Source: Candidatus Woesearchaeota archaeon (GTDB lineage: Archaea > Nanobdellota > Nanobdellia > Woesearchaeales > ARS49). From it: DNA of 55,686 bases. The notes under the pieces were generated by a model. That model ran no database searches and was not told where the DNA came from. It saw only the letters and a list, made by a program, of their open reading frames with translations. Position 1 is the first letter of the stretch. The number at the start of each line of letters is the position of its first letter. Location of the stretch: NCBI GenBank assembly GCA_016203445.1, contig JACQMS010000006.1, forward strand, positions 1 to 55,686. The letters run 5' to 3'. Below, in pieces: positions 14,932-55,686 of the stretch. A program made the position numbers and the translations under genes.

Positions 14932-15531
14932 TTATTTACCTCCTACCAAATTTTGTTCTATTTTTTGTTTTGATTTTGATATAACGACCCTTGCATGTCT
15001 TACAACCTTGTTTTTCAACTTGTAGCCTGCTTGAAGCTCCTCAATAACTGTATTATCAGAATTTTTTGATTCTTTAGTAAGCAAAGCTTCATGTTCATCA
15101 ACATTGAATTCTTTGTTCAAAACTTCAAGTCTTTGCAAACCTTCAGACTCCAAAACTTTTCTTAACTGGTCAAAAATCATTCTAACACCTTTTGCGTGTG
15201 AATCGTCACCAATATTTTTTAATGCCTGCTCAAAACTGTCAAGAACGCTTAAAAGTTTCAGAACTAGCTTTTCTGAAGCATACAACGCGTATTCCTGCCT
15301 TTCATTCTCAACTCTTTTTGAATAGTTTTCGAATTCTGCTTGCAATCTTTTCAAAGTGTTAGTGTACTCTTCAAGAGTTTTAGTCTTAGACTCCAACTCT
15401 TTCTTAATATCAAGCAAAGTTTTTTCTGAAAATTTTTCGGTATTTTCAACGTCCGCAGCTATATGCTGGGCCACTTTTTCCGCGCCCTTCATTATGCGTT
15501 CTTCAACGGATGAAACATTGTTTTTAGTCAT
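14932..15531 (-). CDS. grpE: Nucleotide exchange factor GrpE
   Basis: [36 protein letters not shown]. Confidence 0.95.
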
Positions 15532-15694
15532 AATTCAACATGGTAGAAAGCAAAAGTATATAAATCTGTCGATTTTAGGTCAACGTAAAAGTGATTTAAT
15601 GCTGTTATGAAGCAAGGAGTTATGAAAAAAAACGCTACTAATAACACCATTTTTATATACGTTCAATTTACAAAAACTTTTTCGAGGTGAAGCA

Positions 15695-15892
15695 ATGAAA
15701 AAAATAGTTTTGATCAGTGTGATGCTTTTAGTTGTAGTAGTAATACTTGCTGGGTGCGGTTCAAAAACTAACGCTATCCAAGGCTCTCAAGCAACTGCAG
15801 AAAGTTCAACAACGCCGCAAAAAGTTGTTCAAAACAAAACAACACCAGAAATACCAGAGCCTACAACTATTAGTATAATTGTAGAAGAGTGA
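15695..15892 (+). CDS. Small putative lipoprotein
   Basis: GAGGTG SD; MKK-hydrophobic-LAGC lipobox; T/P-rich tail. Confidence 0.6.
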   Translation: MKKIVLISVMLLVVVVILAGCGSKTNAIQGSQATAESSTTPQKVVQNKTTPEIPEPTTISIIVEE

Positions 15893-15975
15893 ACGTAACA
15901 ATTGTGATGACGTAATCGAATGTATATGTCTTGAGACAACACATTTTATAAATATTCATATTTTTCGTAATATCT

Positions 15976-16677
15976 ATGTTTCAGGAAAAGGATTATGATT
16001 GGCGCGAACACGACCCATATGCACTTGCAAAGTTTGAAGTGGTTAAATCATGGCTTCCAAAAATTCCTCGTTCTATTCTTGATGTTGGGTGTGGCAGTGG
16101 AGATTTTTCTGTTGCCCTTGCGCGTGATGGTTTTCATGTTATTGCTCTTGACCCTAATGCAAAGGCTTGCTCTATGGTCCGCGCAAAGGCGGAAAGTTTT
16201 GGTTTGAAAAACATTATGGTTATTCAGAAAGATTTTTACGATTTTTCTTCGAGAGAAAAATTTGATATTGTTCTTTCTCTGGACGTTTTAGAGCATGTTT
16301 CTGATGAAGAGAAGTTTATTCTTCATGTAAAAAAGTTATTGCACGAAAATGGTTCTTGGATTCTTTCAGTTCCAGCATTACAATTTTTGTACGGGAATTT
16401 TGATGTTCTTCTTGGCCATCGCGAGAGGTATGATAAGAGCAAGATTCGTCGTGGTGTTGGGAAGTATTTCAGTATTGCAAGACTGAGGTATTTTGGTTTT
16501 TTTTTCATCCCTCTTGCTCTTTTGTATAGTAAGGTGTTGAAAACTTCGTATCCTGTGCAGAAGGGTTCTAGTGGTTTTCTTGGCGCGATTATGAGAATTT
16601 TGTGCAGGATCGAGAGAACTGTTCCTGCACCTCTTGGTACTTCTCTTCTTGCAAAAGTTAAACACAAAAAATCATAA
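15976..16677 (+). CDS. Class I SAM-dependent methyltransferase
   Basis: ILDVGCGSG, DVLEH, SVPA...GHRERY. Confidence 0.88.
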   Translation: MFQEKDYDWREHDPYALAKFEVVKSWLPKIPRSILDVGCGSGDFSVALARDGFHVIALDPNAKACSMVRAKAESFGLKNIMVIQKDFYDFSSREKFDIVLSLDVLEHVSDEEKFILHVKKLLHENGSWILSVPALQFLYGNFDVLLGHRERYDKSKIRRGVGKYFSIARLRYFGFFFIPLALLYSKVLKTSYPVQKGSSGFLGAIMRILCRIERTVPAPLGTSLLAKVKHKKS

Positions 16678-16986
16678 AAATCCGCAAATCAGACGCTTTC
16701 TGATTTGCGGATGTCAAGAAGCACTAGTCAAAGACCAGCGGTATGTTGCTTAACGCAATAGCGCACAGTGGTTCTTGATCATGCTCAGAAACTGCTCTTC
16801 AAATTTAAATGTCAAAAAAAGAGCAGTTTCCGACATGCAAAAAACGGCGCCGCATGTCAAGAACTACGGTTCTTGATCATGATCAGAAACCGCTTTCTCA
16901 CTTCAAACTTAAGCGAGAATGTTATGAATAGCGGTTTCTGACATCTCCAAACTAAAGTATTGAGTTTTGGCGCCGTTTTTCCGCAT
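16672..16986. mobile_element. Composite nested palindromic element: host element with two double-hairpin units (16711-16836, 16854-16944)
   Basis: Units ATGTCAAGAA...GTTCTTGATCATG(C/A)TCAGAAAC...GTTTC(C/T)GACAT; the outer parts match 45721-45808 in reverse complement. Confidence 0.75.
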
Positions 16987-16991
16987 AATAA

Positions 16992-17699
16992 TTATACTTT
17001 TTCTTGTTGCATTCTTAATTTTTCATATGCACCTATAAATTCTCTTTGTGTTTCAATACTTCTTGGATGGTGTAATGTTTTTTTTAGCACATCTGGTGTA
17101 ACCGTTAGTATGTCCGCGCCTGTTCTTCTCGCGTATGTTACATCCAGTACTTGTCTCAGACTTCCCACAATTATTTGGGTTTTTGTTCCTGATTGTTTGA
17201 ATTGTTCAACGATTTCCTGCACCACTGTAACAGGGTCATATCCCTGATCTGCAACTCTGCCCCAGAATATGCTTGCGTATGTTGCGCCTGCTTGTGACGC
17301 CCCGTACATTTGTCCGGGTGTCATACAGCAAGTTACATTTGTTGGTATTCCTTCTTCTGAAAGCAGTGAGACGATATCAAGATTTGTTCTTCCTGTTGTG
17401 CTTTGTATCGGTACTTTTATGACAACAGGATTTTTTATTCTCTCAATACCATCGCCCCATCCTCTATACTTTTTTGCTTCTTCAATCATTTGTTCAGGAT
17501 CTTCGCTCGTCAGTTCTACACTTACATGCCAAGGAATTACTCTTGCAATATTTTGTATAATTTCTGGCGAGTATTGTACACCTTCCTTTGCCATTATGAG
17601 CGGATTTGTTGTGCATCCTCTGACGAGGGGTCGCACATCTTTCAGTTCCTTCAGATTTGCAGTGTCTGCATAGTAAACTGTCATATTATTTTCCTCCAT
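16992..17699 (-). CDS. tal: Transaldolase (TalC/FSA fold)
   Basis: ADTA, TTNP, IKVP, NVT; SVEL (Glu) and SIFWGR (Phe) favour transaldolase over FSA. Confidence 0.88.
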   Translation of the reverse strand: MEENNMTVYYADTANLKELKDVRPLVRGCTTNPLIMAKEGVQYSPEIIQNIARVIPWHVSVELTSEDPEQMIEEAKKYRGWGDGIERIKNPVVIKVPIQSTTGRTNLDIVSLLSEEGIPTNVTCCMTPGQMYGASQAGATYASIFWGRVADQGYDPVTVVQEIVEQFKQSGTKTQIIVGSLRQVLDVTYARRTGADILTVTPDVLKKTLHHPRSIETQREFIGAYEKLRMQQEKV

Positions 17700-17733
17700 T
17701 TATTTTTTTCTACTCTCTTCATTTTTCCTTATT

Positions 17734-18369
17734 TTATTGACGTAATGATATTCCCTGCTCTTTTGCTTTTGTGTGCTCAGCTATCTTTTCTATTATTCCA
17801 AAAACGATGCTGTGAAAAAGTACTGCGTGGAGTCCTTCAACGTGCGGTGTTGATTTTATTGGCACTACTATTGGTATATCTGCAAGTGTTGCGAGTGGAC
17901 CTCCATCAAATCCTGAGAATGCTATTGTAGTTCCGCCATTATCTTTTGCGTATTGTACTGCTTTCAGAAGATTTTGTGACCACGCTCCTGCTTTTTCACT
18001 GCCCGATCCTCCATGAACACTGAATGCTACAACTATATCTCCAGCTTGAAAATACGTTTTTAATTGCCCCGTGTAGAGTTCTCCCCATCCTTGATCATTC
18101 ACCCACGCGCTAACTAGAGGTATATTATCTGAAAGAGGCAATGCACGTATTCCTTTGTTTTCTCCTACAAGTATTGTTTTTGAGAGGTCCGCTGCAAAAT
18201 GTGTAGCATTTGATGCACTGCCTCCATTGCCTATAACAAATACTTGCTTGTTATCTTTCCAAGCTTGAAAAAGCACATCGCTTGCGCGAACAATTTTTTC
18301 CTGGTCAACGGTTGCAAGTGCTGAATGAGCGTTCGCCATGAATTGCTGGATATATTGTTGTGATGTCAT
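17734..18369 (-). CDS. gmhA: Phosphoheptose isomerase (SIS domain)
   Basis: GNGGSASNATHFAADL, ND, GFDGG, PHVEGLH. Confidence 0.85.
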   Translation of the reverse strand: MTSQQYIQQFMANAHSALATVDQEKIVRASDVLFQAWKDNKQVFVIGNGGSASNATHFAADLSKTILVGENKGIRALPLSDNIPLVSAWVNDQGWGELYTGQLKTYFQAGDIVVAFSVHGGSGSEKAGAWSQNLLKAVQYAKDNGGTTIAFSGFDGGPLATLADIPIVVPIKSTPHVEGLHAVLFHSIVFGIIEKIAEHTKAKEQGISLRQ

Positions 18370-18387
18370 TTTTTGTCCTTTTATTTT

Positions 18388-19383
18388 TTATGCATTGAAT
18401 AATACTCTTGTTCCGTCCCAATCAAACTTGAAAGGCATATATTGTAACCCTTCTTTTGTCATAGCATCTACGAACTGTTTTTGGTTTGTATCGCAGTAAA
18501 ACATGAAGAATCCTCCTCCTCCTGCGCCCATAATTTTTCCTCCAACTGCACTGTTTGCTATGGCATGATCATACCACTTGTCTATTTGGGGGTCAGTCAT
18601 TTTGTCAGATAATTTTTTCTTAACATCCCAGTGAACGTTCATCCATTCCCCAAATCTTCTTGTATTACCTGTTTCGAGTGCTTTTCTTATCTCTTCACCT
18701 ATTTCTTTTATTTGATGCATTCCTTCTATCCCTCTTGATGGATCTTTTTGCGCTGTATCTTTTTGATTTTGCAGTACTTCTGACGCGTTTCTTTTTATCC
18801 CTGTATAGAATAAGAATAAATTATTTTCGAGTTCTCTTATTGTCTGAGCACTAAGTGTGAGAGGTGTTGTTATAACACTTCCATTTTTGAATATCGTGTA
18901 ATGGTTTATTCCTCCAAATGTTGCGGCGTACTGATCTTGTTTTCCTATTGGTTGTTTGAGCGCATTGATTTCTACTTGGCATGCTTCTTCTGCGAGTTTT
19001 TGGAATGAAACGTACTCTTTCTTGTATATATGAAGTGCATGAAGAAGGGCAACGGTAAAAGTACTTGATCCTCCAAGTCCAGTATTTGATGGAATATCTG
19101 AAAAAGATACTATTTCTACACTCTTTGTTACTCCTAAAAGTTTGAGTGCTTCTCTTACTCGTTCATTTTGTATAGTGTTGATATCTGTTGTTTCTTCTGT
19201 CTTGGAGTATTTCACCAATACTTCATCATGAAAATTTCTGTGCTTGAGTACTATCGTGATATACTTGTCTATTCCTGCTGATATAAACGAGCCCTTGTGT
19301 TGGGAATAGTACCATGGTAGATCTGTTCCTCCGCCCCCTATTGGTAATCTTAATGGTGTTCTTACGACTATCACTCTTTTCAC
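18388..19383 (-). CDS. hddA: GHMP kinase, D-glycero-alpha-D-manno-heptose-7-phosphate kinase-like
   Basis: PLRLPIGGGGTD, PSNTGLGGS, GKQDQYAATFGG, GKIMGAGGGGF. Confidence 0.85.
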   Translation of the reverse strand: MKRVIVVRTPLRLPIGGGGTDLPWYYSQHKGSFISAGIDKYITIVLKHRNFHDEVLVKYSKTEETTDINTIQNERVREALKLLGVTKSVEIVSFSDIPSNTGLGGSSTFTVALLHALHIYKKEYVSFQKLAEEACQVEINALKQPIGKQDQYAATFGGINHYTIFKNGSVITTPLTLSAQTIRELENNLFLFYTGIKRNASEVLQNQKDTAQKDPSRGIEGMHQIKEIGEEIRKALETGNTRRFGEWMNVHWDVKKKLSDKMTDPQIDKWYDHAIANSAVGGKIMGAGGGGFFMFYCDTNQKQFVDAMTKEGLQYMPFKFDWDGTRVLFNA

Positions 19384-19507
19384 CTAAAAATAAAAAGTTC
19401 GAACATCATTTATAAAACTTGTGAAGAAAAGTTTATAAATAGAAAATGATTGCTCCGAAATTGGGTGAGCATTATATATATAATGTATTGCACCATTTTT
19501 TGGGGTT

Positions 19508-20437
19508 ATGAAAATGGTTGATTTGTTAAAAGTTTCTTATCTTGTTCCTGAGATTCAGCGTCAGGTTTCAAGACATCATTTGAACGTTTTTGACGGGAGT
19601 TTTGTTCTTAAGAATGGTGGAAAAGATTACACGACGGATGTTGACCGTATTGTTGAACAAGAGCTGTCTTCTCGTCTTCATGAAGAATTTCCAGGAACTG
19701 CTGTTCTTGGTGAGGAAGAAACTTCTGCCGATGAGAATTCAAGATTTATGTGGGTTATTGATCCCACAGATGGAACTGCTGTTTTTGCGACTGGTGGTGA
19801 ATATTTTAGTTCTTCTATAGCCTTGATTGATAGAGAAAATGGTACTGTTCCTTTTGGCAGCGTGTATCAGCCAAGGAGAGGCAGACAGTTTATTAGAAAT
19901 AATTTATATTGTGGTGCACCGGATATATGCGTAAGGTTGAGAATTCAGGTATTGAGTGAATATCAAGATGATTTTGTGGTATTCCGTCCGGAGCGTTCTC
20001 AATCTTCGAGCATGACTGATATGTTAGTGTGCGCAGTTGCGACTTCAAAATACTTGCCTCAACATCCAGGATTGAAAGAGAAACTTGATAGATTGTTTAG
20101 AAAAGAGAGAGTTCCAATTATTGATAGAGAATATGGTATGATAAACGCAAAACCTGCATCTGGTTCTTCTGCCTTGTACTTGTGTGACACTGCTTCAGGC
20201 AACAGGCACGGGGCGATTCTTTACTTTCAGAAGGCGTGGGATCTTGCTGTTGGCGCGTTATTTGCGAGAGATGCAGGATGTGTAGTCACGTGCAGTACTA
20301 AGGGTATCGAGTTAGAGGGCGAAGATATAGAAAAAGTTATTGCCGGATGCTCAAGGAATACACTCGTGAATTGCGCAGTGTATGCAAACCAGGACGTTAA
20401 AAATACTGTGGAAAGAATGATGAACACAAACTTTTAA
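19508..20437 (+). CDS. Inositol monophosphatase-family phosphatase
   Basis: TTDVD, GEE, WVIDPTDGT, WDLAVG. Confidence 0.85.
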   Translation: MKMVDLLKVSYLVPEIQRQVSRHHLNVFDGSFVLKNGGKDYTTDVDRIVEQELSSRLHEEFPGTAVLGEEETSADENSRFMWVIDPTDGTAVFATGGEYFSSSIALIDRENGTVPFGSVYQPRRGRQFIRNNLYCGAPDICVRLRIQVLSEYQDDFVVFRPERSQSSSMTDMLVCAVATSKYLPQHPGLKEKLDRLFRKERVPIIDREYGMINAKPASGSSALYLCDTASGNRHGAILYFQKAWDLAVGALFARDAGCVVTCSTKGIELEGEDIEKVIAGCSRNTLVNCAVYANQDVKNTVERMMNTNF

Positions 20438-20458
20438 GAATAATCATGTTTTACATCA

Positions 20459-21232
20459 ATGTTTATGAATGCAATGATATTATGCGCAGGTCTTGGCTCA
20501 AGATTAAGACCTATTACAAACACTATTCCAAAGCCAATGATTCCAATTGCGGGAAAGCCATTGCTTGAACATCAAATTGAGTGGTTCAAAAAATTCGGCA
20601 TAACAAATATTGCTATTAATTTGTTCTATCTTTCTGATAGTATTAAGAACTATTTTGGTTCTGGCAAAAATTTTGGTGTAAACATTTTGTATTCCCCGGA
20701 ACCTGAACTTTTAGGAACTGCTGGTGGAGTGAAAAAAGTTGATAATATATCAAAAGGGTTTTTTAGCGGAACATTCGTGGTCTATTATGGTGATAATTAT
20801 ACTGATTTAGATTTGAATCAAATGCTTGACTTTCACAAAAAAAATTGCGCGGTTGCGACGATTTTGATGAGGAAGCGTCCTCGTGGCAATAAAGTATCAA
20901 GCATTATAGAGCTTGATGATATTGGACGGGTAAGAACTTTTGTTGAAAAACCGTCACAAGAGTTAACGTTGTCTCAACCAGATGTTGTTCTCTCAAATAG
21001 TGGTATTTATGTTCTCGAACCCGAAGTATTAAAATACATTCCTCAAAATAAGTTTTTTGATTTTGGTTCTGATGTTTTTCCTGTATTGTTATCTGAAGGA
21101 AAGAAAGTTATGGGTTTTGTGAGCGGCACATTCTGGCGTGAACTTGGGACTCTTGAAAAGTATGAGAATGCAAAGAAAGATATAGAAGAAAGATTCAAGA
21201 TCAACAAAGAGGATATAAAAATGGATTTATGA
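20459..21232 (+). CDS. Sugar-1-phosphate nucleotidyltransferase (HddC/mannose-1-P guanylyltransferase-like)
   Basis: LCAGLGSRLRPITNTIPKPM, LGTAGG, YGD, FVEKP. Confidence 0.88.
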   Translation: MFMNAMILCAGLGSRLRPITNTIPKPMIPIAGKPLLEHQIEWFKKFGITNIAINLFYLSDSIKNYFGSGKNFGVNILYSPEPELLGTAGGVKKVDNISKGFFSGTFVVYYGDNYTDLDLNQMLDFHKKNCAVATILMRKRPRGNKVSSIIELDDIGRVRTFVEKPSQELTLSQPDVVLSNSGIYVLEPEVLKYIPQNKFFDFGSDVFPVLLSEGKKVMGFVSGTFWRELGTLEKYENAKKDIEERFKINKEDIKMDL

Positions 21233-22020
21233 GTTTTTGTTGGGGGAAAAATCATAGTATGCCAAACATTTTTGATTTAACGAAAGGTCCAGTATCAATA
21301 GAAGGTATGGAGTTTTTCTATGGCGCGGAGAGTTCCGGGCTATTAGAAGAAAATAGTTTTGAGGAGATAACATACATGTATGCTCCGAATCCTGCACTAC
21401 TGCTTCATCAAGGTTCGGAAATACTAATTCCGAGGCACAGTGTTACAGTTATAAGACCCAATACAAGTGTTCATTTGATAGTGAACAATCTTGAGAATGA
21501 GGTTTCGTCCTTATTCTTGAGGATTCCTGAAAAGTTTCCATCAGAACTCCAGGAACGCATGGAAAAACTGAACATGCAGTATACGTTGTCAAGAGCAAGG
21601 ATAAATAGTGATGTAAGAGTTTTCTCTTTTGGTGATATTACAATATATACCGATGCATCGAGAGAAGATACAGAGTCTTTGAAAAGAGGGATATGGAAAA
21701 AACCCGGATGGTTTACAGATTATTCAAAAGCACAAACTGCGGGGATTGCAGTCGCTCAATGGCGCGCATATCCTGAAGGAAAAGAAACATATCACTATCA
21801 CAATATTCTCTCAGAGTCATTTGTTGGTATTTGTGGAGAGGCAGATTTTAGAATTGGTGATAGAAGACATGTGCTTAAACCAGGAATACTGTTGTTCTTT
21901 CCTCCGGGTGTTGCCCATGAATTATGTAATATACGTACTGGAACCAGAAATATGTATAGTCATTTCTCTTGCCAATATCCCTCGCTTGCGGATGAAGGAA
22001 AAATAATTATTAAAGAGTAA
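21229..22020 (+). CDS. Cupin-domain protein
   Basis: HYH-x4-E and PPGVAH cupin metal motifs in the C-terminal part. Confidence 0.7.
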   Translation: MSFCWGKNHSMPNIFDLTKGPVSIEGMEFFYGAESSGLLEENSFEEITYMYAPNPALLLHQGSEILIPRHSVTVIRPNTSVHLIVNNLENEVSSLFLRIPEKFPSELQERMEKLNMQYTLSRARINSDVRVFSFGDITIYTDASREDTESLKRGIWKKPGWFTDYSKAQTAGIAVAQWRAYPEGKETYHYHNILSESFVGICGEADFRIGDRRHVLKPGILLFFPPGVAHELCNIRTGTRNMYSHFSCQYPSLADEGKIIIKE

Positions 22021-22107
22021 AGTACTGATAATGAAAAGAAAATTGATTAACAAATATCGTTGAAAAAAGTGGGGAATAATAAGATTTTTATAGAGAAAGA
22101 TATACGC

Positions 22108-22851
22108 ATGATCATGGTTGAAATCTCTATTGTTATTCCGGCATATAATGAGGCAAATCGTTTGCCTGCAACTGTTGAAAGAATTATTCAATTAATAAGT
22201 TCTATGAATATTGAATATGAATTAATTCTCGTGAATAATGCAAGCAAGGATGGCACTTTAGAGTATATGAATTCTTTTGCTTCAGCACACAAAAATATAA
22301 ATGTGAAAGTTTTGAGCACTCCAACCAAGGGAAAGGGTTTGGCAGTGAAAACTGGCATGCTTTCCGCGGTAGGAAAATATGTTTTATTTACTGATGCAGA
22401 TCTTTCTACTCCGATTGAAGAAATTGAAAAATTATTGCCCTTTGTAAAAGAAGATTATGATGTCGCGTACGGTACTAGGGCAATGAAGGAGTCTGTAATA
22501 GTAACTCCCCAACCTTTGCATCGCCGCCTTCTTGGCACTGCGTTAAAGGTTATTCTTTCTTTTCTGATTTTTACTCTTCCTCCAAGACCAACTGATACAC
22601 AATGTGGTTTTAAGATGTACAAAAGAGACGCGGTTAGATTGCTATTTTCTCGCCAAACTCTTGATGGAGGAATGTTCGATGTTGAAATTATATATATTGG
22701 CAGAAAACATCATTTAATGATGAAAGAAGTTCCTGTATTATGGGCTGATGATTCTAAGAATTCTAAGGTGAATATTTGGAAAAGCATGATAACAAACCCT
22801 GCAAAACTTGTAGGCATACGCTTGAAAGATATTTTGGGATATTACCGCTAA
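22108..22851 (+). CDS. GT2, dolichyl-phosphate beta-glucosyltransferase-like
   Basis: VIPAYNEANRL, GKGLAV, FTDADLSTP, DTQCGFK. Confidence 0.9.
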   Translation: MIMVEISIVIPAYNEANRLPATVERIIQLISSMNIEYELILVNNASKDGTLEYMNSFASAHKNINVKVLSTPTKGKGLAVKTGMLSAVGKYVLFTDADLSTPIEEIEKLLPFVKEDYDVAYGTRAMKESVIVTPQPLHRRLLGTALKVILSFLIFTLPPRPTDTQCGFKMYKRDAVRLLFSRQTLDGGMFDVEIIYIGRKHHLMMKEVPVLWADDSKNSKVNIWKSMITNPAKLVGIRLKDILGYYR

Positions 22852-22852
22852 T

Positions 22853-23329
22853 TTAAGATACGGGCAGTAATTGCAATACCGGCGTCAGAATGTAGAGAAC
22901 TATTCCTGTTGTGAGCATCCCAAGTATTATTCCGCCCGAAACATCTATGATATCGTGTCTTCTTAGTACTATTCTTGTCCAGCATATTGCCGCGGCAGAA
23001 ATTATTAGAAGAATGGTGACTGCAGTATTTTCATAAAATGATGCTGTAATGAGCGTGAGTGTTGTAACTCTCGATGCATGCAGGCTCGGAAATGATGACG
23101 CATCCAGTTTTTGTACTGTTGTAGTGTATAATTCTTCTTTTGGTCTTTTTTTAAAATAAAAGTATCTTATGAGCATTGTACTGCAATAGAATATGATGAA
23201 TCCTGAAGCCAGCTGGTATGATCGTAGCTCATAACCTGTGACAAAGAAAAGGATTGTAACTATTCCATATATTGGCAATCCCCCGAGTCCAGTTCCGTCG
23301 GTAATCCACTCTTTGTTCATAAAATTCAT
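22853..23329 (-). CDS. PAP2-family (polyprenyl-pyrophosphate) phosphatase
   Basis: RP, SFPSLH, TRIVLRRHDIIDV; several TM segments. Confidence 0.85.
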   Translation of the reverse strand: MNFMNKEWITDGTGLGGLPIYGIVTILFFVTGYELRSYQLASGFIIFYCSTMLIRYFYFKKRPKEELYTTTVQKLDASSFPSLHASRVTTLTLITASFYENTAVTILLIISAAAICWTRIVLRRHDIIDVSGGIILGMLTTGIVLYILTPVLQLLPVS

Positions 23330-23368
23330 TTAGAAATAATATACACATATTTATATGTTTCGAAGTTG

Positions 23369-24127
23369 TCATTTGTTATAAATTTGTTCTCGTCGTGTCT
23401 TTTTAATTGCAACCATGCCAAGCAAATGACCGCTTAATGCACTCATAAAAGTAGTTTTATTAATCCAAGTTTTGCTTAAAGTTCGTTGGAGTATGCGTGC
23501 ATAATAATCAGGATTCAGCCCGACGCAGTGTATAACTTCAAAGCCTGCATGCTGAAGCTCTTTTTTGAGTTGACTTTTTGTATATCTATACTGATAGAAT
23601 ACTGCGCCACGTTTAAGCTGATATTTATTTAGAATATAGCGTAATGGCCAAAATAGTTTTTGTGCAATATTAGCATAAGGAACAGTTATAAGAAACAATC
23701 CATTTGGTTTAAGTACTCGATATGCTTCAGCAAGAATTTTTTGTCGATCATTAAAGTTGGTGTAATGCTCAATAACTCCCGGGCTATAGTATGTATCAAA
23801 GAAGTCATTTTTGTAAGGGAGATTAAAAAGATCTCCCTTGACAATTCTTTTTGATATTTCTGGAAAAAATTTGCGTGCAGAACGAACTGCTTTTGTGCTG
23901 TAATCAATGCCATAAGAAGTTATTCCACGGGTATGAAGATCATATGAATATTGGCAGACACCACAGCCCGCTTCAAGAAATTTTCCTCGCGTGTATGTAC
24001 GAAGAAATCGCGCTACATGATCGCCCGAGAGTTTATTAAGCGTTTTTTGGCGGTCAACTACAGCATACTGAGTTGACCAAAAATCCGCATCTGGACCATA
24101 CAAAAGCTTGCGTACCTGCACAATCAT
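23369..24127 (-). CDS. Class I SAM-dependent methyltransferase
   Basis: FLEAGCG, GVIEHY, RVLKPNG; ATG 24127 (the track extension crosses a repeat). Confidence 0.85.
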   Translation of the reverse strand: MIVQVRKLLYGPDADFWSTQYAVVDRQKTLNKLSGDHVARFLRTYTRGKFLEAGCGVCQYSYDLHTRGITSYGIDYSTKAVRSARKFFPEISKRIVKGDLFNLPYKNDFFDTYYSPGVIEHYTNFNDRQKILAEAYRVLKPNGLFLITVPYANIAQKLFWPLRYILNKYQLKRGAVFYQYRYTKSQLKKELQHAGFEVIHCVGLNPDYYARILQRTLSKTWINKTTFMSALSGHLLGMVAIKKTRREQIYNK

Positions 24128-24228
24128 AATCAAAGTAGTTGGCAGATAAACTATATAAAATCTTTGGATCAACAACCTTGGCGTGAAAATCTGAGTATGA
24201 ATTGGATTGTTGGCGAGAGTATTAAATG

Positions 24229-24341
24229 ATGTCAAGAACCGCCGGGCTAAAGCCCGGGGCGTGAGGTTCTTGATCATGATCAGAAACCGCCTTCTTACTC
24301 CGAGCCGAAGCAGGAAGATTGCGAATGGCGGTTTCTGACAT
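24229..24341. mobile_element. Double-hairpin palindromic element (MITE/REP-like)
   Basis: ATGTCAAGAACC...GGTTCTTGATCATGATCAGAAACCGCC...GGCGGTTTCTGACAT; first loop has CCGGGCTAAAGCCCGG; 1 bp from the FkbM stop codon. Confidence 0.8.
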
Positions 24342-24342
24342 T

Positions 24343-25224
24343 TCACAATATCAGAAATGGCAGGTGTTCACGAAGAAGTGTGCGGCTATTCCTGTTGGCG
24401 AGGAGTACATTAATGTGTCGTCCAGTTAAACTTTCGGCGATAATTTCTTTGTCTGTAGCGAAACGCACTCGGCGTTTTTGTCCGTCAATGATGTAGAGCT
24501 CAAAATTATAAAGATGTATTATGCTTAGAAATTCTTCTACTGATGCGCCCGCAGCAGCGAGCAGCTCTTTTGAGCATTCAGCAATAATTATCATAGTATT
24601 ATTTGTTTTAATAAGTTTTTTCATGCCGCGAAGAACTTCACATTCATATCCTTGAACATCTATTTTTACCACGTCAAGACGCTTGTTTCTGAATAGTACA
24701 ATATCTAAAGAGCATATTTTTACAGGCACGTTTGCATGAGAAGAATGTTTTGTAATTCTATTATCTCCGCGATTGACAGTATTTAAAAGCAATTGGCCAT
24801 GAGAAGTTTTAGAGCCTAATGCAAATTTATACAGAGAAACATTTTTTAAATTGTTTTGTTTTACGGTGCTTTCTAAAACTATAAATTCCCGTGGGGATGG
24901 TTCAAAAGAATATACTTTTCCGGTTGGCCCGGCAAATTTCGCACAAGAAATAGTATATAAGCCAATATTTGCTCCTATATCTGCAACAAACATTCCTGGT
25001 TTTACTATTCTTCGTATTACTTCCTGCTCGAATCCCTCCCATAGAGAATACTTCCATAGCAAGAGCGCAAAATATCGATCAAGAGATCGAGCTTCAAAAA
25101 TCATTCCTTGTATAATAATCGTATATCTTTTTGATGGAAGAAAACCGTCAGCCTTAGAAAACAGCCAATTCACAAGTTTAGACTTTTCAAGTTTTAGAAC
25201 AATAGATTCAATAGAAAATATCAT
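24343..25224 (-). CDS. FkbM-family methyltransferase
   Basis: DIGANIG, FEPSP, KIDVQGYE. Confidence 0.9.
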   Translation of the reverse strand: MIFSIESIVLKLEKSKLVNWLFSKADGFLPSKRYTIIIQGMIFEARSLDRYFALLLWKYSLWEGFEQEVIRRIVKPGMFVADIGANIGLYTISCAKFAGPTGKVYSFEPSPREFIVLESTVKQNNLKNVSLYKFALGSKTSHGQLLLNTVNRGDNRITKHSSHANVPVKICSLDIVLFRNKRLDVVKIDVQGYECEVLRGMKKLIKTNNTMIIIAECSKELLAAAGASVEEFLSIIHLYNFELYIIDGQKRRVRFATDKEIIAESLTGRHINVLLANRNSRTLLREHLPFLIL

Positions 25225-25279
25225 GTATCTGCGGGAATTTCGAAATGTTTAAAAACTTTCGTACTGCACCACCAGCATT

Positions 25280-26701
25280 ATGGGGGCTTATCAAAAAGAT
25301 GTTCTTTCAGATTTTTATGATTCTCTTGCGATAAAATATGAAAAGAGAGGCGCATCGCGCAAATATTATCATAATCAGCTTTCGAAACTATTAAGATTTC
25401 TTATTCCTCCAGCTATGCACGTTTTAGAGTTAGGTTCTGGAACGGGAAATTTGCTTAGCTCAGTGAATCCTAAAAATGGTGTTGGAATAGATAGTAGCCG
25501 CGGAATGAATGCTTATGCCAAAAAAAAACATCCTGCACTAAACTTTATTTTTGCAAATTTAGAAACATATGTTCATACAAAAAAGTATGATTATGTGATT
25601 CTCTCAGATACTGTTGATGTTCTAGATGATGTTCTTCTCGTTCTGAAAAATACGCAAAAGGCGCTCAAACGAGATTCGCGGGTTATTATCACATATTATA
25701 ATAATTTGTGGCAGCCAGTTATTAATTTTGCCGAAAACTTTGGTTTTAAAGATAGAGCCAGGGTGCACAATTGGTTCTCGAAAGACGATCTAAAAAATCT
25801 TTTATATCTCGCAGGATACGATGTTATATCAACCGGGCAAATTTGTTTACTTCCGGTTTACATTCCGGTAATTTCAACAATTCTGAATAAATATTGCTCA
25901 GAACTGCCAATTTTAAAAAGATTTTGTTTTATACAGTATATTGTTTCAAGGAGTGCGCCAAAGCCATTTTTGCGGAAATCTTCTGTTAGCGTTATAATCC
26001 CAACTTGGAATGAGGTTGGTACTATAGATACTGCAATAAAAACTATTCCTGTTATGGGAAGCGGTACAGAACTAATATTTGTTGACAATCACAGCACTGA
26101 TGGAACAAAAGAGAAGATAGAAGAATACATGACTGTTTACAAAAATAAAAATATAAAACTTATTATGCAAATTCAAAAGAAGGGAAAGGCAGTTGCAGTA
26201 TATCAGGGATTTGATTCTGCGAAGGGTGATATAGTCATGATTTTGGACTCTGATCTGACTGTTCAGCCGAAGGAGCTTCCAAAATTTTACGATGCAATAG
26301 TTGATGGCAAAGGAGAATTTATCAACGGGTGCCGTCTTGTGTATCCTATGGAGGAAAAATCCATGCAAACAATAAATTATATTGGAAATAAATTTTTCAG
26401 CATGACATTTAGCTGGCTTTTAAATCAGCCTGTAAAAGACACGCTTTGTGGTACAAAGGTTCTTACGAGGCACTCTTATGAAAAAATTAAGGCAGGACGC
26501 GAGTATTTTGGCAACTTCGACCCTTTTGGAGATTTTGATCTTCTTTTTGGAGCTTCAAAGTTAAATTTGAAAATAGTTGATATGCCTATTAGGTACAAGG
26601 AAAGAACTTATGGAGATACTAAGATTCATCGATGGCAGCACGGTTTGCTCCTTTTGAAGATGTGTGTATACGCATATAAGAAGCTTAAGATTCGCTGGTA
26701 G
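25280..26701 (+). CDS. Methyltransferase-GT2 glycosyltransferase fusion
   Basis: VLELGSGTG at the N-terminus; VIIPTWNE, LDSDLTV, DTLCGTK, DPFGDFDLLFGA at the C-terminus. Confidence 0.88.
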   Translation: MGAYQKDVLSDFYDSLAIKYEKRGASRKYYHNQLSKLLRFLIPPAMHVLELGSGTGNLLSSVNPKNGVGIDSSRGMNAYAKKKHPALNFIFANLETYVHTKKYDYVILSDTVDVLDDVLLVLKNTQKALKRDSRVIITYYNNLWQPVINFAENFGFKDRARVHNWFSKDDLKNLLYLAGYDVISTGQICLLPVYIPVISTILNKYCSELPILKRFCFIQYIVSRSAPKPFLRKSSVSVIIPTWNEVGTIDTAIKTIPVMGSGTELIFVDNHSTDGTKEKIEEYMTVYKNKNIKLIMQIQKKGKAVAVYQGFDSAKGDIVMILDSDLTVQPKELPKFYDAIVDGKGEFINGCRLVYPMEEKSMQTINYIGNKFFSMTFSWLLNQPVKDTLCGTKVLTRHSYEKIKAGREYFGNFDPFGDFDLLFGASKLNLKIVDMPIRYKERTYGDTKIHRWQHGLLLLKMCVYAYKKLKIRW

Positions 26702-45720: not shown

Positions 45721-45808
45721 ATGCGGAAAAACGGCGCTAAAACTCAATACTTTAGTTTGTAGATATAGCGCCGTTTTTTGCATCCTAAAAATCCGCGGAT
45801 TTTTATGA
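45721..45808. repeat. Palindromic element, uninterrupted version of the 16672-16986 host element (inverted)
   Basis: ATGCGGAAAAACGGCGCT...AGCGCCGTTTTTTGCAT followed by CCTAAAAATCCGCGGATTTTTATGA. Confidence 0.8.
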
Positions 45809-45880
45809 TTTCAAAATCGGGTTTAATTCCTCGCGAGAACATAGATTAATCTTTAGCACTTAAACTGGCATTATAAATTT

Positions 45881-53159: not shown

Positions 53160-53295
53160 ATGTCAAGAACCACTGGTCAAAGACCGATAGCATGTTGCTT
53201 AATGCAATGGTGCACAGTAGTTCTTGATCATGCTCAGAAACCGCCTTCTTGCTACGAGCGGTAGCGAGGAAAATGTGAATGGCGGGTTCTGACAT
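53160..53295. mobile_element. Double-hairpin palindromic element (MITE/REP-like)
   Basis: ATGTCAAGAAC...GTTCTTGATCATGCTCAGAAACCGCC...GGCGGGTTCTGACAT. Confidence 0.8.
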
Positions 53296-54307: not shown

Positions 54308-55354
54308 TTATTTAATTATTTTCTGAATTTTGTTGCACAATTGATAAGTATTTGCATGCATTGCGTACGCTTTCCACCCACACAAGATTTCAAGAATAGT
54401 TTCATAACTATTGTTATTCTGTTTGTACATATCGAGAAATAAATGTATTTTTGAAAATATTTTTCTAATATTTCTTTTTCGAATCCTTTTATGATAATAA
54501 AAAATAGCGTATCCTACAAAATGTATGCCGTTCTTTAATGGAGTTATATTGCATTTTTGAGGGTGAAGTTCAAGTTTCAACGTTTTAAGAAAAGTATCAA
54601 TTTTTAATTTATATTCTTGTAACACTCTTCCTGAACGGTGCAGTATCACAAAATCATCAACATAACGAACGTAATACTTTATCTTCATAACCTGTTTGAT
54701 GAATGCATCGAGTTCGTTCAGATAAACATTTGCAAAGAACTGGCTTGTCCAATTACCAAGAGGCATCCCTTTTCCATCGCGTCCAGAGTTATAATTCTGA
54801 AGAAGTATTCTCAAGAGCCACAACAGTTCCTCATCTTTAATTTTTTTTGAAAGTATCTCGATTAGTACGTCATGATCAACAGTGTCAAAATAGTGTCTGA
54901 TATCTGCTTTGAGTACATAGCCCATAACATCATTTTTCGTTTTTGCATCTGGTCTGAGTACACCGTTTCTTGTAACTTTGTGTAAATATTTTTCTAAACG
55001 TTTCACCGCAGGCAGTGTTCCTTTGCCCCTGCGGCTTGCGTAACTATCAAAAATAAATCGTGGCTCATAAATTGGTTGTAGAACATTCACGAGAGCATGA
55101 TGTACTATCCTATCACGAAAATCACTAACACAAATGGTTCTAGTTTTTGGGTCTCTAAGAATAAAAGTTTTCATAGGTTGTGGCATATATGTTTTGTTTT
55201 TGAGTTCTAAGTGCAATCTAAATATGTTAAGGATATGATTTTTGTGAAACTCTTCAATGGCAGGAGTATTTTTGTGTCTTCTTGCATTCCAGTACGCTGT
55301 TTGTAATGATGATATACTTATGAGCTGTTTATATAATTTTTTGTACGTTTTCAT
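54308..55354 (-). CDS. Reverse transcriptase, DGR class
   Basis: PKTRTI...FRDRIVHHA, SYASRRGKG, KADIRHYF, GMPLGNWTSQFFANVYL (LG..SQ), YVRYVDDF. Confidence 0.92.
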   Translation of the reverse strand: MKTYKKLYKQLISISSLQTAYWNARRHKNTPAIEEFHKNHILNIFRLHLELKNKTYMPQPMKTFILRDPKTRTICVSDFRDRIVHHALVNVLQPIYEPRFIFDSYASRRGKGTLPAVKRLEKYLHKVTRNGVLRPDAKTKNDVMGYVLKADIRHYFDTVDHDVLIEILSKKIKDEELLWLLRILLQNYNSGRDGKGMPLGNWTSQFFANVYLNELDAFIKQVMKIKYYVRYVDDFVILHRSGRVLQEYKLKIDTFLKTLKLELHPQKCNITPLKNGIHFVGYAIFYYHKRIRKRNIRKIFSKIHLFLDMYKQNNNSYETILEILCGWKAYAMHANTYQLCNKIQKIIK

Positions 55355-55397
55355 AAACAAACCCCAAGTCCTTCTCTTTTTTTTAGAGACTGAGAGT

Positions 55398-55496
55398 TAT
55401 TCCGCAAGCCCGGCCATTGTTGTTGAAGTTGCTGTATGCATTGACATTGTTCAAGTTGTTGTTGAAGTTGTCGACACCCCCAACACGGAACAACCG
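55398..55496 (-). ncRNA. DGR template repeat (TR)
   Basis: Non-coding, just upstream of RT; reads RLFRVGGVDNFNNNLNNVNAYSNFNNNGRACGI with 11 AAY codons; ends approximate. Confidence 0.85.
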
Positions 55497-55686
55497 AGTG
55501 TGTAGCTCTGTACACTATAAATAACAATCACCGCAGTTCCAAGACTTTCACTTTACAGTTACTCGTTGTCACCGCTGAATTTTATAGCGAAGATCAAATT
55601 TGGTGCTCTCGCCATAGTGACAGAACGTGTAGCTCCCAAGGATGTTTTTATTCGCAGGTTTTGCGACAGTACATCAGGACTTAGGG

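Follow-up and report, generated by a model that had tools for sequence, protein, structure and literature searches.

What occupies the 314-bp spacer near 16.7 kb of the archaeal contig JACQMS010000006.1, and how did it come to be there? The window analyzed here is the whole 55,686-nt stretch of that contig (C28 in our numbering), from the Candidatus Woesearchaeota archaeon assembly GCA_016203445.1 (G000), a Woesearchaeota-type DPANN metagenome-assembled genome (MAG) with archaeal genes, 815,648 bp on 37 contigs, 37% G+C, and 92% completeness. The spacer separates an S-adenosylmethionine (SAM)-methyltransferase gene (15976–16677, + strand) from a convergent transaldolase/fructose-6-phosphate aldolase gene (16992–17699, − strand), both assigned with Pfam, and it is a pile-up of non-coding mobile DNA in which small two-hairpin elements lie partly inside each other. 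An earlier note, written from the letters of this DNA alone, had reported a double-hairpin element inside another palindromic element at 16672–16986 and had proposed that the double-hairpin unit is mobile and builds nested arrays. The sequences are as it described them, and the 319-nt region folds far more stably than shuffled versions (z = −11 as RNA and −12.7 as DNA). The units belong to a family with exact ends whose copies insert without target duplication beside a one-sided flank motif, nest in one another, and show covariation in their stems.

At the 5′ edge of the composite is a small hairpin (16680–16712, +) with a 14-bp stem, a 5-nt loop, and an inverted repeat that is 100% complementary; related hairpins precede double-hairpin copies on contigs C6, C7, C25, C27, and C35. 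The first double-hairpin copy, of 124 nt (16712–16835, +), is flanked by ...GCGGA and TGCAAAAAAC; the loop of its left hairpin is branched and 49 nt long, and that of its right hairpin has 33 nt. Next comes a host hairpin that we call the T hairpin (16836–16985, +; TGCAAAAAACGGCGCC...GGCGCCGTTTTTCCGCA), with A/T runs on either side and a loop broken by the second double-hairpin copy, of 89 nt (16855–16943, +), which is flanked by ...GCCGCA and TCTCCAAAC and has TACG as left loop and a right loop of 43 nt. The same scaffold without any double-hairpin insertion is found at 45721–45808 (−), where a short palindrome, the linker TTTTTAGGA, and a T hairpin make up a palindromic reverse complement reading TCATAAAAATCCGCGGA-TTTTTAGGA-TGCAAAAAACGGCGCT...AGCGCCGTTTTTCCGCA-T, and this unit serves as the empty reference for three insertion sites. 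Contig C24 carries the same host element as the 16.7-kb locus without the 89-nt unit. A genome-wide search, as the earlier note had suggested, recovered the 91-nt unit that it had delimited (16854–16944) on C27 (98.9% identity, E 5e-45) and on C6 (96.7%, E 3e-40), and the 23-nt core GGTTCTTGA-TCATGM-TCAGAAAC gave 27+15 matches with at most two mismatches in G000 versus none in the reversed control; together with the fold z-scores, these counts show that the composite structure is not a product of chance. Both units are present, although their ends had to be moved: the inserted DNA of the 91-bp unit is the 89 nt at 16855–16943, with one flank base counted on each side, and the unit placed at 16711–16836 runs from 16712 to 16835. 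Nor was the latter simply added after GCGG, since relative to the 45.7-kb copy it replaces the linker.

The T hairpin is the palindrome AAAAACGGCGCC, and its stem reads CGGCGCT/AGCGCCG at 45.7 kb, CGGCGCC/GGCGCCG at 16.7 kb and on C27 and C24, and TGGCGTT/AACGCCA on C33. Three stem positions covary across five copies, and the compensatory T-A to C-G change that had been pointed out is real. The T hairpin also begins with TG and ends with CA, and the next base is T in all but one of the five copies, C27 having A; it could thus be a one-hairpin member of the mobile class to which the double-hairpin unit belongs. In the small hairpin at the 5′ edge, the 45.7-kb paralog reads CCGC|GGA without the inner 23 nt present at 16686–16708. 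Those extra nucleotides (compared with 45790–45800, −) form a mini-hairpin with an 8-bp stem bracketed by GC on both sides, and this stem resembles the outer part of the right-hairpin stem of the double-hairpin unit; the 23 nt may be a separate tiny hairpin insertion.

The basic element of the family consists of two abutting hairpins, each running from TG to CA, and the whole begins with TGTCA and ends with TGACA. Parsing of 187 sources yielded 165 complete copies, including 37 from G000, and all share the plan TGTCAAGAAC-loop 1-GTTCTTGA-KCATGM-TCAGAAAY-loop 2-RTTTCTGACA, in which TGTCAAGAAC on the left and the reverse complement of RTTTCTGACA on the right form terminal inverted repeats. Unit lengths of 110 to 119 nt are the commonest (33 of 144 copies); the minimal form has ∼55 nt, and the 50- to 59-nt class holds 12 of the 144, with loops ranging from 2–6 nt up to 60–80 nt. 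The left stem TCAAGAAC/GTTCTTGA is almost invariant, and together with the KCATGM joint and the ends it is conserved across DPANN lineages. The right stem and the extensions of both stems into their loops vary by compensating substitutions: of 144 copies, 79 have T-A and 58 have C-G at position 8 of the right stem, and 133 have G-C and 8 have A-T at position 4. Stem pairing extends into the two loops by 2.7 and 4.4 bp on average, compared with 0.6 bp when the loops are shuffled. An alignment of one subfamily (32 copies from many genomes) contains double-sided changes at 10 of 27 predicted pairs, among them the terminal TG and CA pairing with the central CATG, which defines the unit as exactly two abutting hairpins, each from TG to CA. 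As judged by comparing sequences, the right-stem covariation, the pairing of the loop extensions, and the double changes indicate that the hairpin structure is under selection. No family of Rfam 15 matched the element, the search returning weak, microRNA-like chance matches far below thresholds, and readings by eye as a K-turn, hammerhead, or C/D box were rejected because the required motifs are missing.

The exact ends of the element were obtained from empty sites. For each copy in G000, the 30 nt on either side were joined and searched against G000, and 24+24 nt were compared. Five insertion sites have uninterrupted paralogs, in which 31 to 47 of 48 flanking bases match across the junction (35 to 47 for the best empty copy of each site). 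The first site, in the loop of the T hairpin, is filled at 16855–16943 and at C27:14833–14921 and is empty on C24 (47/48), at 45.7 kb (40/48), and on C33 (39/48). The second, in a GC-rich repeat of ∼140 nt, is filled at C29:4162–4272 and empty on C14, C26, and C7 (46/48 each). The third, at the joint ...CGCGGA|TTTTTAGGA, is filled on C6 and empty on C33 (39/48) and at 45.7 kb (31/48), and the fourth, at the joint TTTTTAGGA|TGCAAAAAAC, is filled on C24 and empty at 45.7 kb (35/48) and on C33 (32/48). The fifth interrupts a sister copy in its right hairpin, where TCAGAAAC and TTTCCAT meet; it is filled at the end of C13 and empty in four other copies (41–43/48), and what look like tandem left modules on C10, C25, and C35 are built in the same way. 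All five sets agree in a net gain of TGTCA...TGACA without duplication, save perhaps of a single T, the base with which both the element and the right flank begin. The base to the left of the insertion is A in four sets and C in one, and long target duplications are absent from the ends, the 90-nt flanks sharing 11 nt or more in only 2 of 131 copies, in both cases away from the ends. The insertion at AT with a 2-bp duplication or a shared end that had been proposed therefore gives way to a gain of exactly the element, with at most a 1-nt (T) duplication or shared base and with one proven site at C|T. The proposed targeting of other hairpin elements is only partly supported: the insertions in the T-hairpin loop and in the right hairpins of sister copies are real, but unique intergenic DNA holds the majority of the 37 copies, and a paralogous empty site can be found only where the target is itself a repeat.

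The GC-rich repeat among the targets has four copies (C14:9012–9148, C29:4053–4300, C26:1–66, and C7:17–150), one of which is split by a double-hairpin element, and it has no Rfam match. A motif resembling ACTTAAGTGCCAAAGATTAATCTATGTTC recurs upstream of genes at 45815–45870 (−), at C18:8346–8373, and on C26, C35, and C37, and double-hairpin copies occur at two different positions inside it, one on C26 and C37 and another on C35; this motif may be a promoter or operator element.

The two flanks of the element differ. Among 145 non-redundant copies, the left flank is random (no more than 0.35 bit per position over 10 nt), whereas on the right, following ...GA, the sequence is C in 139, A in 135, T in 131, any base, T in 122, C or T in 122, A in 111, and A or G in 125. 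Of 142 right flanks, 108 fit T-N-T-Y-A-A at four or more of five positions and 59 fit it at all five; the corresponding counts are 15 and 0 for the mirrored left flanks and 991 and 88 for 19,978 random 6-mers. The right flanks of the five empty sites read TCTCCA, TTTCGA, TTTTTA, TGCAAA, and TTTCCA, and the presence of those bases in uninterrupted DNA makes the motif part of the target. The element itself opens with TGTCAA, which also fits T-N-T-Y-A-A; seen on the opposite strand, each copy sits 3′ of T-T-R-A-N-A and itself ends in TTGACA. Tabulation of the flanking dinucleotides gave A|T at the insertion in 24 of 36 copies in G000, with A preceding the element in only 63 of 145 copies across genomes, so that AT is a local habit and not the rule.

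The family is patchy in its distribution. The core is present in 12 of 41 related genomes and in at least 103 stretches of a species-representative collection, and among the matches listed, the core-bearing contigs come from Woesearchaeota, Pacearchaeota, Aenigmatarchaeota, and Nanoarchaeia MAGs; no viral contig was found to carry it. The core also occurs in contigs titled Aminicenantes (L066), Legionellaceae (L034), and SAR86 (L039), of which L066 bears a complete element and the other two did not parse as complete; these matches may be mis-binned DNA or chance. Within G000, copies reach 97% identity. The same-genus genome G001 has two alignable orthologous spacers, corresponding to those at 45.7 and 53.2 kb, that are without the elements and too diverged for the element ends to be placed; at the 45.7-kb site it lacks ∼220 bp, including the T-hairpin unit. 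The genes flanking the 16.7-kb spacer have no DNA match in G001, G002, G003, G004, or G009. Although 88% of G000 is open reading frame (ORF), 28 of the 37 copies are free of any crude-ORF overlap longer than 15 nt. Convergent neighbors flank 9 copies and divergent ones 5, the two co-directional classes count 7 and 6, and a further 10 copies adjoin the end of a contig; the orientation of the copies is unrelated to that of the neighboring genes. With five sets of filled and empty paralogs and with the element-free spacers of G001, the double-hairpin unit behaves as mobile DNA, and nested arrays of it exist, as had been proposed.

A probable history of the 16.7-kb composite can be read from its relatives. 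Compared with the bare scaffold at 45.7 kb, C24 retains both putative parental copies, the first upstream of the linker and the second downstream of it, ahead of the T hairpin; C6 is occupied at the same two joints but is not continued by a T hairpin. The 16.7-kb locus has lost the linker, and the core common to the two copies now joins the left half of the first to the right half of the second; C27 has the same chimeric order, at 94% identity to the 16.7-kb locus. Fused halves without the linker are the product expected of recombination between two identical cores, and such a deletion, from core to core of adjacent copies, probably gave rise to the chimeric 124-nt unit. The same right loop is paired with different left loops on C6, C24, C27, and C28, which suggests that halves recombine freely.

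The enzyme that moves the element was sought in several ways. Profile searches of G000 found no match to Y1_Tnp, TnpB, DDE_3, DDE_Tnp_1, IS110, Resolvase, Y2_Tnp, or Phage_integrase, and control genomes matched for seven of these eight families, the Y2_Tnp control giving none. The earlier observation that the window holds no transposase thus extends, for these families, to the whole 92%-complete assembly. Phage_integrase (XerA-type) matches are absent from G000 and present in all 14 control genomes. In ∼1.9 Mb of sequence, 155 of 159 exact left hairpins are directly followed by a right hairpin, and no coding copy of the element was found there. No neighboring gene recurs: the 625 ORFs that lie within 2.5 kb of a copy in other genomes include no family with more than 4 loci. 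G000 itself has only six paralogous ORF pairs, of which the annotated ones encode FtsZ, TrmB-type regulators, and reverse transcriptases. The element is non-autonomous, and its mover may be encoded in the missing 8% of the genome, on an unbinned replicon, or by a gene of an unrecognized family.

We lean toward an element mobilized in trans that is inserted in one orientation and without duplication by the single-strand logic of HUH enzymes, with nesting and core recombination as later steps, and we hold this to be somewhat better than an even proposition. An enzyme supplied in trans would insert the unit precisely and in one orientation directly 5′ of T-N-T-Y-A-A, leaving the target unduplicated; on the opposite strand, the insertion would fall directly 3′ of T-T-R-A-N-A, which matches the element's own end TTGACA. 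Single-strand HUH-type chemistry (peel-and-paste) would then act on the strand T-T-R-A-N-A | TGTCAGAAAY ... GTTCTTGACA |. Hairpin elements that bear the motif, sister copies included, would be hit again to give nested arrays, and recombination between the identical 22-nt cores of neighboring copies would delete or shuffle halves, yielding the 124-nt unit at 16712–16835; a third copy would then have inserted into the T-hairpin loop. An HUH-type mechanism is favored because precise, oriented, duplication-free insertion beside a motif mirrored at the far end of the element, together with hairpins at both ends, matches the signature of the IS200/IS605 insertion sequences and their derivatives; the chemistry, the active strand, and the deletion step are inferred.

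Several observations weigh against this mechanism. Neither a Y1 (HUH) transposase nor TnpB was found in the 92%-complete G000; of 41 relatives, 13 have Y1 genes, but only 5 of the 12 core-holding genomes do, and ten Y1 loci examined in relatives have no element ends. The HUH or DDE transposase bordered by the same termini that the earlier note had envisaged was thus found neither in G000 (Y1, DDE_Tnp_1, and DDE_3) nor at those ten loci. The ends of the element are inverted repeats and its hairpins are terminal, unlike those of IS200/IS605 and of the palindrome-associated transposable elements (PATEs), and TG...CA ends are typical of DDE transposons. Copies show no orientation bias relative to local GC/AT skew (21:15 in G000 and 39:46 elsewhere), skew being an untested proxy for replication direction in these genomes. 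All of the precise empty sites are paralogs and not alleles. Because the motif T-N-T-Y-A-A was both derived and scored on one set of copies, its exact form is provisional, whereas the asymmetry of the flanks is not in doubt; the five proven targets fit it less well (three to four of five positions) than the population does.

A clearly less probable but still serious reading is that these copies represent a novel DPANN transposition system, recently active, in which modules with TG...CA ends, of one hairpin (the T element) or two, are pasted without duplication on the 5′ side of T-N-T-Y-A-A, and in which the enzyme responsible belongs to none of the known families of transposases.

A tyrosine or serine recombinase could instead insert a circular form of the element by crossover in a short core (TGTCAA in the element and T-N-T-Y-A-A in the target), as in integrative elements and integron cassettes. 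The first six bases of the element and its right flank do form an imperfect direct repeat of one motif, the joint GTTCTTGA-KCATGM-TCAGAAAC looks like inverted binding arms around a 6-bp spacer, and precise, oriented insertion would follow from such a crossover. The targets, however, differ from the core at one to three of six positions, and site-specific recombinases usually tolerate target-core mismatches poorly. With no Phage_integrase, Resolvase, or IS110 match in G000, and with Resolvase in 10 of 41 relatives (including the unpublished genome G011) and in only 2 of the 12 core-holding genomes, we consider this route rather unlikely.

An ordinary miniature inverted-repeat transposable element (MITE), moved by a DDE transposase and having 10-nt terminal inverted repeats with a 1-nt (T) or 2-nt (AT) duplication, would account for the repeats TGTCA(A)GAAAC and the TG...CA ends, for four of the five proven insertions, which lie between A and T where a 1- to 2-nt duplication is possible, and for the A that precedes 24 of 36 copies in G000. 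The remaining proven site is C|T, and the two sides of the element are unequal across genomes, with A before it in 63 of 145 copies, yet A and T after ...GAC in 135 and 131. Symmetric cut-and-paste at a short palindromic target does not predict a one-sided motif. Neither DDE_Tnp_1 nor DDE_3 is matched in G000 (the rve, ISL3, IS256, IS1595, and IS66 families were not searched), and its only multi-copy ORFs are the FtsZ, TrmB, and reverse transcriptase pairs and three unannotated pairs. A MITE of this kind is an unlikely source of the copies.

Functional structured RNAs or protein-binding hairpins, such as bidirectional terminators or RNA-stability elements, that were spread by recombination and kept by selection would explain the conserved unpaired bases, the stems covarying across genera, the very stable folds, and the location at gene ends, the T hairpin, placed between convergent genes, carrying runs of T on either strand. 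This origin is improbable given the precise insertion inside unrelated repeats and sister copies, the patchy presence among relatives, the absence of any Rfam match, and the lack of an orientation preference relative to neighboring genes. The cell may nevertheless make use of the units after their insertion.

The reality of the composite itself was examined in Logan unitigs and contigs of four public runs from one groundwater study over the region 15500–25500. The left junction of the nested copy is crossed by unitigs of runs X2 (16771–16912) and X3 (16826–16912), and the right junction by unitigs of X1 (16900–16985) and X2 (16900–16982), three of the four runs thus crossing a junction; these unitigs could also derive from the near-identical copy on C27. 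The repeated core of the 124-nt unit is unbridged, with a unitig gap at 16752–16770 in all four runs. That the composite is an assembly chimera joined across the shared repeat core is very improbable, since the independent C27 locus has the same order of parts at 94% identity with substitutions of its own and unitigs from two runs support each junction of the nested unit, even though unitigs break at the repeated core without linking the two halves of the 124-nt unit and many copies lie at contig ends. A candidate allele without the 89 nt (joint 16852/16942, runs X1 and X3) was rejected, as it has 27 nt on one side and the C24 paralog explains the joint, and a metagenome scan with a 24-nt unique stretch beside the composite gave no matches.

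Compared by description and not by sequence, the closest known match to the family is SMR-A, a group of small mobile repeats (SMRs) of Haloquadratum walsbyi (HqIRS42/43/55) described as ∼110 bp long, with prominent inverted ends, no target duplication, and tens of copies per genome (PMC3119063). SMR-A elements are too short to code, have no known related transposon, and are mobilized in a manner called "enigmatic," and they insert preferentially within near-terminal palindromes of other mobile elements, namely PATEs and IS605-type transposons (PMC3119063). The family described here is likewise archaeal and ∼110 bp long (mode 110–119 nt), with inverted ends, no duplication, and no related transposon. 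Its proven targets are different, comprising sister copies, a terminator-like hairpin, a linker, and an unrelated GC-rich repeat, with most copies in unique spacers, and the passages on SMR-A give neither a double-hairpin anatomy nor a one-sided flank motif (PMC3119063).

IS200/IS605 elements, as described, insert without duplication and in one orientation beside a 4- to 6-nt motif, with a related motif at the other end (TAM/TEM) (PMC10055086, PMC3119063), and they and PATEs have like-sequence hairpins at both ends on one strand (PMC3119063, PMC10055086). PATEs are coding-free IS200/IS605 derivatives, of which ∼52-bp versions with fused ends are apparently still mobile (PMC3119063, PMC10055086); their palindromes stop short of the ends, and terminal inverted repeats are lacking (PMC3119063). 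The double-hairpin family resembles this group in its duplication-free insertion, oriented beside a one-sided T-N-T-Y-A-A (108/142 vs. 15/142). It differs from PATEs in that its hairpins reach the last base and its ends are inverted repeats, and from IS200/IS605 in that G000 has no tnpA or tnpB and the Y1 genes of relatives are not flanked by element ends.

Among bacteria, repetitive extragenic palindromic (REP) sequences and their BIME and REPIN arrangements, with REP-associated tyrosine transposases (RAYTs), are short extragenic palindromes that often form mosaics of alternating modules, for which one trans-acting enzyme is postulated, and REPs carry a conserved 5′ GTAG-type tetranucleotide. 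No RAYT-type (Y1) gene was found in G000 and no GTAG-type tetranucleotide was seen, and the double-hairpin family is further set apart by its two-hairpin modules, fixed TG...CA ends, and exact insertion footprints. Correia-type MITEs are intergenic, ∼100 to 150 bp long, present in many copies, derived from DDE insertion sequences, and equipped with terminal inverted repeats and a TA or longer duplication. Our family is also short, intergenic, multi-copy, and terminated by inverted repeats but has no duplication beyond 1 nt, and no parent insertion sequence was found.

In the literature covered, such repeats are not described for DPANN or Woesearchaeota. The present analysis adds base-exact ends, established with five filled and empty sets, the insertion without duplication, and the one-sided motif, as well as the anatomy of TG...CA hairpin modules with covarying terminal pairs and a deletion model for the composite. 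Small mobile repeats of archaea that have no transposase and leave no footprint, as in the SMRs of Haloquadratum, have so far been an unexplained curiosity, and a family widespread in DPANN genomes with base-exact ends, a one-sided motif, and a minimal form of ∼55 nt makes the question of their mover directly testable. The elements also shape the scarce non-coding bases of minimal genomes, at gene ends, terminator-like hairpins, and the contig breaks of MAGs.

Two further copies in the window are solitary. The one at 24230–24340 (+), of the commonest subfamily, has a left loop of 26 nt and a right loop of 43 nt and is followed by TTTCAC; its summed unitig depth is ∼18 times that of its flanks, and the flanks of other copies part from it exactly at 24229/24230 and after 24345. 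A contig of run X1 leads from 24345 back to 24229, forming a head-to-tail pair of 111-nt units with a 6-nt spacer, which may come from another locus or another organism. The other solitary copy, at 53161–53294 (+), has loops of 49 nt on the left and 43 nt on the right and is also followed by TTTCAC.

Two paralogous reverse transcriptase genes (RVT_1) are present, one near the end of the window (54308–55360, −, and 55497–55658, −) and the other at C26:25141–26223, and the reverse transcriptase of the window is downstream of an Rfam RT-16 RNA match (77 bits). Repeat pairs beside these genes, to which we draw no link from the double-hairpin element, suggest diversity-generating retroelements: 55403–55497 is 85% identical to C33:57697–57791, and the end of C26 has an internal 93-nt repeat at 90% identity.

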